Below the pieces are notes generated by a model. That model saw nothing but the letters and a program-made list of their open reading frames with translations, was not told the DNA's origin and made no database searches. A DNA stretch of 53,297 nt from Candidatus Thalassarchaeaceae archaeon (GTDB lineage: Archaea > Thermoplasmatota > Poseidoniia > Poseidoniales > Thalassarchaeaceae), in the NCBI GenBank assembly GCA_030751995.1, contig JASMFB010000003.1, positions 1-53,297 of the forward strand, in the 5' to 3' direction. A program made the position numbers and the translations under genes. Shown in pieces: positions 1 through 33,720 of the stretch. The stretch's first letter is position 1, and each line of letters begins with the position of its first letter.

Positions 1-1989
1 GAAGTATGTGTGCTGTCGACGAGGCATGCCTTGAATCCCCAATCTGTGCATCGGCCAGAAGACCAAGTTGTAAGAGATGAAGCCAGTCATGAAATGTAGA
101 ATTCCTAGTTTTTCATTCATCATTCGACCGGTCGCCTTGGGGAACCAATAGTAGATTCCAGAGTAAAGCCCGAAGACGATTCCACCTACGAACACATAGT
201 GGAAGTGAGCGACGACGAAATAAGTCTCATGTAAGTGTAAATCCATCGCTACAGCGGGGAAGTACATTCCTGAGATTCCACCTAATGTGAATGTTGCAAG
301 GAAGCCTAGTGCCCATAGTGTGTGGGTTCGGTAGACAAGACTTCCACCGTGCATAGTCTGCAGCCAATTGAAAATCTTAATTCCAGTTGGAACGGCCACA
401 AGCATCGTCGTCAGCATCGTGACGAATCGCAGAACTGGGCTCATTCCTGAAGTGAACATATGGTGCCCGTAGACAATGAACCCAACAATGCCAATGCCCG
501 CGAGCGCGAAGACCATTGACTTGTAGCCGAAGATTGTTCGTCGCGCACTTGTTGATAGCACCTCAGAAATTACACCAAAGGCTGGCAGCACAACCACGTA
601 CACCTCGGGATGGCCGAAATACCAGAACAGGTGACTCCAGAGAAGCGGATCGCCTCCTGCTGCCGCTTCGTAAAACACAGTCCCTATCGTCCGGTCTAGT
701 AAGACTTGAATCAATCCAATTCCAAAGGCGGGAATTGAGATGAAAAGCATCAGTGTGGCAATCAGCATTGACCACGAGAATAGTGGCATATTCATCCAAC
801 CCATGCCGGGCGCACGCATCGTGCAGAACGTGGTCATGAAGTTGATTCCAGAAATGGTGGATGAGGCGACAAAGAGAATCTGTCCAGCCACCCATAACGT
901 GACTCCGGAATGAGCTGCATGTGAGACAATGTAAGGCGCGTACCCGGTCCACCCCGTATCTGCCCCCTGTCCACTGAAAATTCCAGTGAAGATGAGAATC
1001 GCCCCGGCAGGGTTGAGCCAGAACGCCAGTGCGTTCAAACGTGGTAGGGCTAAATCAGGCGCTCCAATTTGCAATGGAACAATCCAGTTTGCAAATCCAG
1101 CAATCATTGGCATGGCTGCGAGGAAAATCATCGTCGTACCGTGCATGGTGAAGAACTGATTGTATTCATCCTGAGTCAGGAAATCGTTTCCTGGTGATGC
1201 AAGTTGAACCCGGAAAATTAGGGCGAACATACCCCCTACTCCGAGGAAGAACAGACCGTTGGCCATGTACAACGAACCGACATTTTTGTGGTCCGTACTG
1301 GTGATAAAATCACTGAACCATGGCCAGAAGTTCTCCCAAGCAAACGCGTCTGGACTCTGTCTGTAGAATACCCAAATCACACATCCGAGGGTTATCATCA
1401 CCATCAGGAGAATTGCTGTAGCAAGAACAGTCAATCCACTTGCTTGTTCCGATGGTTGTGGACCAACATCTAGGGTTAGACGACCATACATGTCGCCTCC
1501 ACTGGTTCCATCGCCGTTGACTGAATTTGTGTGAAGAACGAATTTAGCCCCCCCTTCTGATGGGGCGGTCCATTCGACTTGCCACTGGGTTTGATCATTG
1601 CCTTGCCCAGTGTCATCAGCATCGATACCGTTGTGCGTGACACTGCCGTCAGGATTTTCCTTCACCGAGTCATCGACAGCTGCAAGAGAACCTGCACTAG
1701 CCCAGAGATGGAACCCCCCGAGTGCTGTTGCTCCAGGATCCGTGCCCGACGGGCCACCAGTGAATGTAATGTTGAGCGTGTAGGTTGCTCCACCTTCCAA
1801 CTCCGCAGGGAGCCCTTCGAGACTGGGCACAACCTCTTCGCTTGGACTCTGACCGTGACAGGCACACCCATCATTCTGGACGCCAGATACACCAAACGGA
1901 TACGATTGGGCACTAGGTGCAAGTGCCACCGCAATCAAGAGAATGGCAAGGATGGCTATGGCACGAGGATTCCTAAACGCTTTCAACAT
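1..1989 (-). CDS. coxA: Heme-copper (cytochrome c) oxidase subunit I, A1 type, with N-terminal exported Reeler-like domain; 3' end lies outside the window
   Basis: Manual translation (not in ORF track): open frame from ATG at 1989 with SD GAGGTGA. Motifs TSTDHKNVG, GAPDLALPRLN (D-channel Asp), WYFGHPEVY, YGHHMF, AVPTGIKIFNW (K-channel Lys), VVAHFHYV, GMPRR. Confidence 0.97.
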   Translation of the reverse strand, partial: MLKAFRNPRAIAILAILLIAVALAPSAQSYPFGVSGVQNDGCACHGQSPSEEVVPSLEGLPAELEGGATYTLNITFTGGPSGTDPGATALGGFHLWASAGSLAAVDDSVKENPDGSVTHNGIDADDTGQGNDQTQWQVEWTAPSEGGAKFVLHTNSVNGDGTSGGDMYGRLTLDVGPQPSEQASGLTVLATAILLMVMITLGCVIWVFYRQSPDAFAWENFWPWFSDFITSTDHKNVGSLYMANGLFFLGVGGMFALIFRVQLASPGNDFLTQDEYNQFFTMHGTTMIFLAAMPMIAGFANWIVPLQIGAPDLALPRLNALAFWLNPAGAILIFTGIFSGQGADTGWTGYAPYIVSHAAHSGVTLWVAGQILFVASSTISGINFMTTFCTMRAPGMGWMNMPLFSWSMLIATLMLFISIPAFGIGLIQVLLDRTIGTVFYEAAAGGDPLLWSHLFWYFGHPEVYVVVLPAFGVISEVLSTSARRTIFGYKSMVFALAGIGIVGFIVYGHHMFTSGMSPVLRFVTMLTTMLVAVPTGIKIFNWLQTMHGGSLVYRTHTLWALGFLATFTLGGISGMYFPAVAMDLHLHETYFVVAHFHYVFVGGIVFGLYSGIYYWFPKATGRMMNEKLGILHFMTGFISYNLVFWPMHRLGIQGMPRRQHTYF

Positions 1990-1998
1990 AATATCACC

Positions 1999-2634
1999 TC
2001 AGGCGTGTACCTCGACAACAGCCGTCATGTAGCCGTGATCCTTGCCACAGTACTCAGTACACATGAGAAGAGAAGATCCAATCTCGTCAGTACTAGGAGT
2101 ATGATAGAGTCGAGTGTACATCCCGGGTTGGGTATCTTCCTTAAGGCCCCAATCAAGGAAGAATGGCGCATGTGTAACATCCGTTGAAGTCATGTTGAAC
2201 ATGTAAGATTCCCCGGCCTTCAATCGAAGCAGAGGTCTAGTCTGACCCTCAACATCAATATTTGATACTTCACAGATATCCGCATCCAAATCACCGCAGT
2301 CGAAAGCCCAACTCCACTGGCTTGAATTTACTTTCACTTCGTGAGCGTCAGGATCTGCAGTCCACATCTGATCTATGGGGCCCCAAGCGATGAATGTCAG
2401 ATAGACGATGAGGATGAACGGCACTATCGTCCAAGTCAATTCCATCTTGAGATTATCGTTTTCTGCGGGAAATACGCCGGGAGTAAAGTTGTCGATATTG
2501 TTGTCACTACCATCTTTGGAACGGAAGACGAGGGAATTGTAGAGTAACCAAACTACGACGATAATGAGGACGATGAGTGCCCAGAAATTGAACACATCAA
2601 ATAGTTCCCAGAACACCTCGCCGCCTGCCTCCAT
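1999..2634 (-). CDS. coxB: Cytochrome c oxidase subunit II (CuA)
   Basis: Two TM helices, ELTWTIVP, QWSWAF, DVTH and CuA motif CTEYCGKDHGYM; stop codon overlaps the coxA SD. Confidence 0.96.
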   Translation of the reverse strand: MEAGGEVFWELFDVFNFWALIVLIIVVVWLLYNSLVFRSKDGSDNNIDNFTPGVFPAENDNLKMELTWTIVPFILIVYLTFIAWGPIDQMWTADPDAHEVKVNSSQWSWAFDCGDLDADICEVSNIDVEGQTRPLLRLKAGESYMFNMTSTDVTHAPFFLDWGLKEDTQPGMYTRLYHTPSTDEIGSSLLMCTEYCGKDHGYMTAVVEVHA

Positions 2635-32381: not shown

Positions 32382-32433
32382 CTTGAAATAGGGGAGTTGG
32401 GTCGGCGGGCCTGCACATTGAGGTGATATTATG
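32382..32433 (+). promoter_or_regulatory. Putative tuf promoter (CTTGAAATA-N8-GGGTCGGCG) and SD GAGGTGA
   Basis: Same elements as the secG promoter; TGAGGTGATATTATG is identical to the coxA start context. Confidence 0.6.
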
Positions 32434-33720
32434 AGTTCACAATGGGAAGATAAGAAGAAGCCGCACTTGAACATCGTTTTCGTAGGGCACGTTGACCACG
32501 GAAAGTCGACCACTGTTGGTCGCCTTCTTTTGGACACAGGCCACATCGAAGAACACGTGATCGAGAAGAACGAGAAGCTAGCAGCAGAGATGGGTAAGGC
32601 CGGATTCGGTCTCGCTTACGTCATGGACGGTCTGAAGGAGGAGCGCGAGCGTGGAATCACAATCGACGTTGCTCACAAGGAATTGTTCACGCCAAACTAC
32701 TACTTCACAATCATCGACGCACCTGGTCACCGTGACTTCGTGAAGAATATGATTACCGGAACCAGTCAAGCTGACGCCGCAGTTCTCTGCGTAGCAGCAA
32801 ACGACGGTGTTAGCGCACAAACCAAGGAACACGCGTTCCTTGCTAAGGTGCTCGGTGTGAAAGAACTGATTGTCAACATCAACAAGATGGATATCTCTGG
32901 TGTCGATTATTCTGAATCACGATACAATGAAGTCGTTGAAGAAATCACAGGGCTACTCAAGATGTCTGGCTTCAACCCAGCTGACGTACCGATGGTTCCT
33001 TGTTCGTCTTTCAACGGTGAAAACCTGTACAACAAGAGCGACAACATGGGCTGGTACAAAGGTCCAACGCTTTTCGAGTGCATTGACGGTATTCAGATGC
33101 CACCCAAGCCCACCGACCGCCCTCTACGACTTCCAATTCAGGATGTCTACAAGATTAGCGGAATTGGTACAGTGCCAGTTGGCAAGATCGAAACCGGTAT
33201 TCTCAACGCTGGCAAGACAGTTATCTTCAACCCCAGCCAACAATCGGCTGAGGTAAAGAGCATCGAGATGCACCACACGATGGTCGACAAGGCAGAGCCT
33301 GGCGACAACGTTGGATTCAACGTCCGCGGTCTATCCGCACAGGACATCCGCCGTGGTGACATTGCAGGATACTCAAACAACGAGCCAATGTTCGTTCGAC
33401 ACGACGAGACCTTCGTGGGTCAAATCCAGTTGATGGACATCCCCAAGGCTGTTGCAGCGGGTTACACTCCTGTATTCCACGCGCACACGGCTCAGGTTGC
33501 AGTTCGCTTCGTCGAACTCTTGGAGAAGACCTCCAAGGGTCAGAAGGAAGCCAACCCGGCATTCCTTGTGACTGGCGACGCTTGCCTGATTCGGTTCCAG
33601 CCAACCAAGCCGATGGCAATCGAGCAGATGGACGCTTTCCCCGAACTTTGCCGCTTCGCAATCCGCGATATGGGCAAGACGGTTGCAGCAGGCGTTTGCA
33701 TGAAGATTGAGAAGAAGTGA
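32431..33720 (+). CDS. tuf: Translation elongation factor aEF-1alpha
   Basis: [44 protein letters not shown]. Confidence 0.99.

Follow-up and report, generated by a model that had tools for sequence, protein, structure and literature searches.

Why should the catalytic subunit of a terminal oxidase begin with an exported domain? The question is raised by coxA at one end of contig JASMFB010000003.1 (GenBank assembly GCA_030751995.1), from a Candidatus Thalassarchaeaceae archaeon of the order Poseidoniales; we call the whole analysed stretch of 53,297 nucleotides the window. In it, cytochrome c oxidase subunit I (CoxA) carries 231 residues ahead of the TDHK motif (residues 232–235) with which its core begins. 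We propose that this extension is an exported mono-haem c-type module, a cytochrome f-like beta-sandwich tethered to the catalytic subunit by a transmembrane (TM) helix. Judging from sequence, it is probably a covalent-haem module that feeds the CuA centre of subunit II (CoxB). The case is built on observations of the fusion and its topology, of conservation, family membership and fold similarity, of phyletic and gene-context patterns, and of genes for cytochrome c maturation (Ccm).

The coxA core matched PF00115 (COX1) in a hidden Markov model (HMM) search (residues 237–662, E = 8.4e-139), and full-length fused relatives are 770–786 amino acids (aa) long. An earlier note, made by reading the letters of the window, had counted about 225 extra codons upstream of TDHK; the extension stood, the count did not. 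In order, the extension comprises a Sec-type signal peptide, a beta-rich domain of ~145 residues, a short linker and one extra TM helix (Table 1). The signal peptide reads as the note had quoted it and falls within a hydropathy peak, as does the extra helix that the note had placed before the core, whose own first helix starts at residue 240. By its position, this helix would put the domain outside, on the CuA side, and bring the chain back to the cytoplasmic side before CoxA helix I. The note had also assigned GCACHG to positions 1855–1866; this interval encodes CACH exactly, and both flanking glycine codons lie just outside it.

The start context of coxA overlaps the coxB stop codon. Its 15-mer, TGAGGTGATATTATG, occurs twice in the window, at 1987–2001 (−) and at 32419–32433 (+), and in none of 100 shuffles; the second copy precedes the EF-1alpha/tuf open reading frame (ORF; 32431–33720), such that the claimed identity of the two start contexts is exact. 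An RNA-library contig of 164 nt bridges the coxB–coxA junction (1890–2053) with 0 differences. Such libraries can contain DNA and their contigs cover only parts of 1–2700, the uncovered parts being uninformative; we regard the coverage as a weak sign that the extension is expressed. In databases, the fused proteins are labeled 'cytochrome c oxidase subunit I' or hypothetical.

The fusion is widely conserved. Among 90 database matches to residues 1–232, a C-x-CH motif lies within the first 110 residues in 89, T[DN]HK is present in 88, and both are present in 87. The three exceptions are a protein that is not CoxA (P0089), a CoxA whose motif was missed by the pattern (P0040), and P0091, a sequence from a short contig that has no domain and begins just 36 residues ahead of the CoxA motif. 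When the window protein was aligned with 89 matches (P0091 left out), C42, C44, H45 and H119 were invariant in 90/90 fused forms, so the fusion, the CxCH and the second His all came through the conservation check that the earlier note had advised. G33 was likewise found in 90/90, P31 in 87/90, and Y, L or F at residue 30 in 85/90. Fused CoxA also occurs outside the order, in at least two further Thermoplasmatota families (genomes G080 and G097, the latter with two copies).

To which family does the domain belong? It is a member of NCBIfam NF041895, choice-of-anchor V (choice-V hereafter), with 83.9 bits (E = 1.1e-23) against a curated cut-off of 42 bits, and residues 21–168 aligned with profile positions 3–144 of 150. 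The one-line description of NF041895 names no function or cofactor. A Pfam search with the N-terminal 226 aa gave no family at E ≤ 1, PF02014 (Reeler) included, and phmmer of the domain against PDB sequences gave nothing at E ≤ 10. A HMMER scan of 1.84 billion representatives gave 398 relatives at E ≤ 1e-3. In a 120-sequence family alignment (A1), the near-invariant positions are G33, G41, C42, C44, H45, P61, Y70, G92, F93, G100, H119, G130, W136, W140, P143, N155, V157, G159 and D166 (protein numbering). The choice-V family is distantly related to the Reeler domain: PF02014 is matched by 39/120 family members, the A1 profile retrieved from the PDB the F-spondin reeler alone (E = 0.006), and the top Foldseek matches of an AlphaFold 2 model of the domain are F-spondin reeler structures (E = 1.5e-6). 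Both resemblances named in the earlier note, to choice-of-anchor V and to Reeler, were therefore borne out by the HMM and Foldseek searches that it had suggested. The ESM Atlas contained only Reeler-tinged hypothetical clusters for the domain.

Every sampled genome of the order (61/61) carries 3–10 choice-V copies. Where choice-V proteins usually carry a sorting signal, the fused copy has the TM helix and CoxA, and stand-alone paralogs end in a TM anchor. Cell-surface anchors are found in a few members of A1 (PGF-CTERM in 4/120, LPXTG-type in 2/120). We also noted two ~880-aa surface proteins in a closed 1.6-Mb relative, genome G027 (781964–784603, L048; 1531267–1533921, L085), in which a choice-V C-x-CH domain is followed by TSP3, PKD or BiPBP-like repeats.

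The cysteine motif itself is informative across the family. The best 150 family representatives, less P0089, were surveyed, and C-x-CH was present in 137/149. The other 12 comprise three fragments truncated at the N-terminus, one protein with no signal peptide, and eight with another spacing. These eight keep CH, with the first Cys spaced 2 (CSQCH, the canonical motif), 4 (three cases), 5, 6 or 8 (two cases). Known haem-c sites vary as CX2CH, CX3CH, CX4CH and CX15CH, and a floating first Cys ahead of a fixed CH points to a haem-c-like site, unlike copper or Rieske sites. The window domain does not have the canonical CxxCH (it reads C-A-C-H), and no Cys besides C42 and C44 is conserved in the domain in A1. 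We considered separately whether CxCH might be Rieske box II; this was rejected, as the domain has neither the Cys-x-His of box I nor further conserved Cys.

Fold comparison pointed to cytochrome f (PetA). The AlphaFold 2 model of residues 25–193 (mean predicted local distance difference test score, pLDDT, 88; predicted template modeling score, pTM, 0.83) was compared with 48,161 PDB cluster representatives. Ranks 1 and 2 are cytochrome f chains, 2jxm_B (Z = 9.8, 133 residues aligned, root-mean-square deviation 3.2) and 4ogq_C (Z = 9.2, 129 residues aligned), and next comes the F-spondin reeler (Z = 8.5). A second model, of a stand-alone paralog (pLDDT 86), also matched cytochrome f best (Z = 10.7 with 145 residues aligned, and Z = 10.2 with 138), the next chain scoring 8.5. 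Cytochrome f outscores the F-spondin reeler even though the latter is a true sequence homologue. The structural alignment starts at model residue 6, which is Tyr30 and faces residue 1 of cytochrome f; the aligned cytochrome f span is chain residues 1–249. As modeled, the domain is cytochrome f-like in fold and layout.

The alignment thus begins at the predicted mature N-terminus, and that terminus is fixed throughout the family. Of the family members, 108 extend far enough at the N-terminus to be scored; 105/108 have A, S or G four residues ahead of the invariant Gly33, and in 100/108 the −4/−6 pair obeys the signal-peptidase rule. The mature chain of the family starts three residues before Gly33; its first residue is variable, and its second is Pro (37) or Ser (34). 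In cytochrome f, the haem takes its sixth ligand from residue 1, through the alpha-amino group. The fixed cleavage site suggests that the free N-terminus is functional here, as in cytochrome f, and is consistent with the alpha-amine of Tyr30 as a candidate sixth haem ligand. The alternative sixth ligand would be His119.

The earlier note had proposed looking for cytochrome c maturation genes. The window's genome, which is 71% complete, encodes a CcmF-like protein (756 aa), CcmC (226 aa), a CcmA-CcmB fusion (417 aa) and CcmE (124 aa, ending in the archaeal C-P-S-K-Y motif), and the same four Ccm proteins are present in G027. In Methanosarcina, according to Gupta et al. 2022 (PMC9084895), CcmABCEF that includes a CcmE of the CXXXY type is both needed and enough, and the archaeal machinery is either complete or lost along with cytochromes c. 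As to their arrangement, the Ccm genes of the window's genome are scattered (C77 1321–3275, L007; C105 1492–1866, L008; C87 1318–3546, L006), and the CcmA-CcmB fusion is a single ORF in which the CcmA ATPase is joined to a CcmB-like membrane part.

Which proteins might this system serve? Class I cytochrome c domains (PF00034, PF13442) were found in 0/5 Poseidoniales genomes, the window's genome included (two of the five being single-contig). In a rough census of the 1,368 ORFs of G027, 11 contained CxxCH. Seven of these are, by eye, cytoplasmic zinc-finger or iron-sulfur proteins; the other four look exported or membrane-bound, two of them being thioredoxin-like (AhpC-TSA/Redoxin) and the remaining two matching no cytochrome family and having no counterpart in the window's genome. 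The same genome has five ORFs in which a signal peptide is followed by a choice-V C-x-CH domain. By their sequence, the choice-V C-x-CH proteins would be the obvious Ccm substrates. We also noted a membrane protein of 490–540 aa with a thioredoxin-like active site CSNCH (G027 715316–716782, L044; G000:C155:4358–5977), a paralog of which reads WCKPCK. The CSNCH protein may be an apocytochrome thiol reductase, and counts of cytochromes based on CxxCH wrongly include it.

The phyletic pattern was assessed in 151 Thermoplasmatota genomes of at least 85% completeness, with choice-V counted above its cut-off. Choice-V was found in 50 genomes and CcmE in 51: 42 have both, 8 choice-V only, 9 CcmE only and 92 neither. 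Five of the eight genomes with choice-V only were examined, and 5/5 encode PF01578 (CcmF/CcmC/CcsA-type) proteins. No genome searched has the domain while clearly lacking a haem-handling protein. We take the co-occurrence of choice-V and CcmE as a consistent pattern and not as statistical proof.

Next to these patterns stands the gene context of the stand-alone paralogs. On contig C26 of the window's genome (1–1916, L001), a choice-V protein of 272 aa with a C-terminal TM anchor heads an operon; next come a membrane protein (149 aa) and a Rieske-type protein that is truncated where the contig ends. In G027, the operon is complete (879234–885470, L052/L053) and comprises choice-V (279 aa), the membrane protein (149 aa), a Rieske protein (CTHLCC ... 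CICHSS), a cytochrome b (PF00033, E = 3e-41; 289 aa, the 4-helix N part), a 929-aa protein and a ferredoxin. The first five genes stand in the same order in the closed genome G003, from the order's other large family (L096 3780–9652). The ~930-aa protein (G027 879655–882444; L096 3780–6608) has a subunit IV-like start with the Qo motif PDWY. From sequence and gene order, this appears to be a b6f-like complex with a split cytochrome b, in which the choice-V protein stands where cytochrome f or c1 would and has the matching topology. The operon joins this Rieske/cytochrome b complex to cytoplasmic iron-sulfur chemistry, a link that is unusual.

Some details of this operon may be recorded here. 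After its subunit IV-like start, the ~930-aa protein has a large, probably external insert and then cytoplasmic 4Fe-4S (Fer4) and CCG (HdrD/GlpC-like) domains; in G027, its gene is followed by that of the ferredoxin (135 aa). The 149-aa membrane protein gave a weak DUF7318 match.

A second cox operon of the window's genome (coxC-coxB-coxA; C98 1–3417, L002) likewise encodes a CoxA with a choice-V domain (GCNCH). Since the fusion is kept in two cox operons and in further families, electron delivery to the oxidase is its simplest explanation. Cytochrome f classically has cupredoxins as partners, and these are encoded as well. One of them, with 135 aa and a PGF-like anchor at its C-terminus (G000:C98:16111–16518), lies ~0.8 kb upstream of the second cox operon.

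The recipient of such electrons would be CoxB. As the earlier note had read it, CoxB has the CuA domain only and no cytochrome c domain; the caa3-type layout, with cytochrome c fused to subunit II, is thus absent here. CoxB matched PF00116 (E = 4.3e-6) and TIGR02866 (E = 3.6e-27, which is under the TIGR02866 cut-off). Its H155, C192, E194, C196, H200 and M203, which we take to be the CuA ligand positions, are invariant in a 26-sequence alignment.

We propose the following course of events. A Sec signal peptide would be cut after Ser29, as the sequence rule predicts, and the archaeal CcmABCEF system would link haem to both cysteines (Cys42, Cys44) of a C-x-CH site that is unusually short, His45 being the likely proximal ligand. 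For the sixth ligand there are two candidates: His119, or the alpha-amine that cleavage would free on Tyr30, which would match cytochrome f. The domain would then sit on the outer face next to the CuA domain of CoxB, be reduced by its f-like paralog in the Rieske/split-cytochrome-b complex, or else by a cupredoxin, and, as topology, paralog context and the analogy with caa3 oxidases suggest, hand the electrons to CuA. The earlier note had entertained a shortened haem-c motif alongside a metal or disulfide site; we favor haem-c because the C-x(n)-CH spacing varies, the fold resembles that of cytochrome f, the Ccm system has no canonical substrate, and a paralog sits in the Rieske operon.

Several points weigh against a haem-bearing inlet. 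C-x-CH is not an established haem-c motif, our literature search found no experimental precedent for haem attachment to C-x-CH or for CXCH maturation, and the Ccm system of Escherichia coli reportedly failed to mature an engineered CXCH site. This is the main reason why we hold the proposal at no more than probable. The ligand set is also unsettled, for the position of H119 is His in 111/120 family members and Q, F, S or R in the other 9. As for the fold, the PetA N-domain HMM (PF16639) gave no match at E ≤ 1 in six frames of the 5 Poseidoniales genomes, the window's included; Foldseek ranks the reeler first and did not have cytochrome f among the matches shown; and the cytochrome f Z of ~10 is only ~2 units above the common beta-sandwich background. 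A fold match without a PetA sequence match is why we speak of likeness to cytochrome f and not of a PetA member. Turning to the phyletic data, 8/50 choice-V-positive genomes gave no CcmE match, and the genomes are related and not independent, so that co-occurrence overstates the link. Lastly, the surface-anchored choice-V members and the ~880-aa proteins would also suit an adhesion or structural role, and the encoded cupredoxins could reduce CuA directly, making a built-in inlet unnecessary.

Could the site hold copper instead? Cys42, Cys44 and His45, perhaps with His119 or the N-terminal amine, might form a copper site, the domain being a Cox11-like Cu(I) chaperone that supplies CuB of the attached subunit I, or a copper redox centre. 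Cox11 has a beta-sandwich fold and a CFCF motif, and a membrane-tethered beta-sandwich with C-x-C recalls it. The Cox11/CtaG HMM (PF04442) matched nothing at E ≤ 0.01 in six frames of the 5 genomes, the coxA gene included, which leaves these genomes without a known CuB chaperone. The beta-sandwich protein YcnI, which binds copper by means of its N-terminus, turned up lower among the fold matches (Foldseek E = 3e-4; Z = 6.6), and a fixed mature N-terminus would suit amine-ligated copper as well as haem. Nevertheless, the first Cys shifts by 1 to 8 residues while CH stays fixed, which is unusual for Cu(I) and typical of haem-c, and copper leaves unexplained both a complete Ccm system without a canonical substrate and a paralog that heads a Rieske/cytochrome b operon. 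Moreover, Sco1/SenC chaperones are present in 5/5 genomes, and, a weak point, neither model has Cox11 among its 50 best fold matches. On balance, we consider a copper site unlikely.

Alternatively, the domain might be a non-redox structural or adhesive module of the Reeler type, its Cys pair closing a small disulfide loop, with a role in assembly, S-layer contact or supercomplex docking. Among its sequence relatives of known structure, the closest are eukaryotic Reeler domains of the adhesion type, and some family members bear cell-surface anchors or belong to the large surface proteins described above. A 2023 paper (PMC10691727) describes reeler as a module for adhesion at the N-terminus and gives its role in CYBDOM proteins as unknown. 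A disulfide loop, however, needs neither an invariant His beside the Cys pair nor a second His, and the profile alignment shows F-spondin to be without the CxCH segment and the TH His. The fusion and operon ties to two different respiratory complexes, together with the Ccm co-occurrence, also point to electron transfer, and we rate a purely structural role as quite improbable.

Least probable to us is a haem module that is not a CuA inlet (a sensor, a haem/iron handling site, or an outlet to external acceptors): paralogs on large surface proteins and beside unrelated genes would fit it, and contact with CoxB is unsupported by co-prediction (domain residues 30–184, the CoxB soluble domain 86–211 and haem; interface score ipSAE 0.00 in two uncontrolled runs, which counts neither way), but the fusion is kept in two cox operons of the window's genome and in at least two further Thermoplasmatota families.

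How does the proposed cytochrome f-like inlet compare with known systems? Cytochrome f is the top structural match of both models (Z 9.2–10.7) and shares with the domain a signal peptide, a C-x(n)-CH near the mature N-terminus, a beta-sandwich in place of the helical cytochrome c fold, and a TM anchor after it. The likeness extends to the family, with its fixed cleavage site, its paralog in an operon with Rieske and split cytochrome b, and its encoded cupredoxin partners. The domain differs from cytochrome f in having no PetA HMM match, C-x-CH and not CxxCH, a conserved second His, and a fusion to an oxidase subunit. Its motif lies ~12 residues from the N-terminus, whereas that of cytochrome f lies ~20 residues from it, and at ~145 residues the domain is shorter than the aligned span and is probably without the small domain of cytochrome f.

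By functional analogy, the domain resembles the caa3 oxidases, as a putative c-type haem entry domain built into an A-type oxidase near CuA. Unlike in caa3, the domain is joined in front of subunit I by way of an additional TM helix, and its fold is a beta-sandwich and not class I cytochrome c. In quinol-dependent nitric oxide reductase (qNOR), NorB has an exported NorC-like domain and one TM helix in front; that domain has the cytochrome c fold, and its haem has been lost. The window protein likewise has an exported domain and a TM helix ahead of a catalytic subunit of the haem-copper oxidase superfamily, but its domain is of another fold and its putative haem ligands are invariant.

The Reeler domain (PF02014; F-spondin, reelin, CYBDOM/SDR2) is a distant homologue of the window domain. 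CYBDOM proteins combine reeler with the redox domains DOMON and cytochrome b561 (PMC10691727). Unlike Reeler proper, the window domain does not match PF02014, and the F-spondin alignment misses the CxCH segment and does not keep the TH His. A further parallel is CbsA (cytochrome b558/566) of the cbsAB-soxLN locus of Sulfolobus, an exported, beta-rich mono-haem protein with a C-terminal anchor. CbsA is encoded with Rieske and cytochrome b genes, where it replaces cytochrome c1, and has non-covalent haem b and a DOMON-like fold; we liken it to the choice-V paralog in layout and gene context.

Table 1. Features of the coxA–coxB end of the window, with the observation on which each assignment is based.
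Feature	Position	Strand	Description or basis
coxA ORF	1..1989	−	663 aa; runs off contig end
CoxA core, from TDHK (residue 232) on	1..1296	−	C-terminus cut by contig end
Extra TM helix, residues 186–208 (by eye)	1366..1434	−	hydropathy peak 181–211; R210 after helix
Exported beta-sandwich domain (predicted), residues 30–175	1465..1902	−	NF041895 HMM, AlphaFold 2, fold matches
His119 of 'VTH', second conserved His, possible distal ligand	1633..1635	−	conservation
C42-A-C44-H45, proposed covalent haem-c site with proximal His	1855..1866	−	invariance in fused forms
Predicted mature N-terminus, Y30-P31-F32-G33	1891..1902	−	cleavage prediction and conservation
Signal peptide, Sec-type, residues 1–29, predicted cleavage AQS/Y30	1903..1989	−	hydropathy peak 4–32
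Start context: coxB stop TGA, GGTGAT Shine-Dalgarno-like box, coxA ATG	1987..2001	−	15-mer TGAGGTGATATTATG
coxB, subunit II	1999..2634	−	211 aa, two TM helices, cupredoxin (CuA) domain only

Two further settings of the domain were noted. In another Thermoplasmatota family (G073:C3 207–3444, L094), a stand-alone choice-V protein of 332 aa with GCTCH is encoded between a gene for a 151-aa cupredoxin-like protein and one for a 614-aa protein that is, by eye, a multicopper oxidase; this genome gave no CcmE match and has three PF01578 proteins. A 336-aa paralog in the window's genome (C99 1039–2049, L004; GCTCH) apparently has Gln or Ser in place of the second His and several C-terminal TM helices, and adjoins a gene that, judged by eye, is probably pntB (transhydrogenase beta subunit).

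What, then, is new? A built-in c-type cytochrome inlet of an oxidase is known in kind and new in its present form. Our literature search found no description of a CoxA/choice-V fusion, nothing on Poseidoniales cytochrome c maturation, nothing tying Reeler or choice-of-anchor V to haem or cytochrome f, and no paper on cytochrome f relatives. There is a substantial chance that the fusion marks a new cytochrome class related to cytochrome f. To our knowledge, cytochrome f is usually regarded as a fold without relatives, and its origin as an open question. If the proposal is true, the same fold, the position of the Cys-Cys-His set and the gene context would give that question a testable answer. 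On a wider view, which we find possible but hold with doubt, the choice-V/Reeler superfamily might be the missing wider family of cytochrome f: a widespread set of c-type cytochromes, beta-sandwich in fold, in which C-x-CH is a minimal attachment site and the N-terminal amine may be a ligand. These might serve Thermoplasmatota both as the high-potential haem subunit of a b6f-like complex and as an oxidase inlet, be the only c-type cytochromes in some abundant ocean archaea, and have left cyanobacterial cytochrome f and the haem-less eukaryotic Reeler as descendants.

If the proposal is true, C-x-CH would join the haem-c attachment motifs, and pattern searches for CxxCH would have to be seen as missing it. 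In a 2015 survey of archaea based on CxxCH, Thermoplasmatales cytochromes c are reported only from two single-cell genomes (PMC4429474). A haem-bearing choice-V domain would also suggest an ancestral redox role for the Reeler domain. For the Poseidoniales themselves, it would explain why small genomes hold a full Ccm system, and it would define how electrons reach the oxidase of archaea that play a major part among the aerobic heterotrophs of surface seawater.

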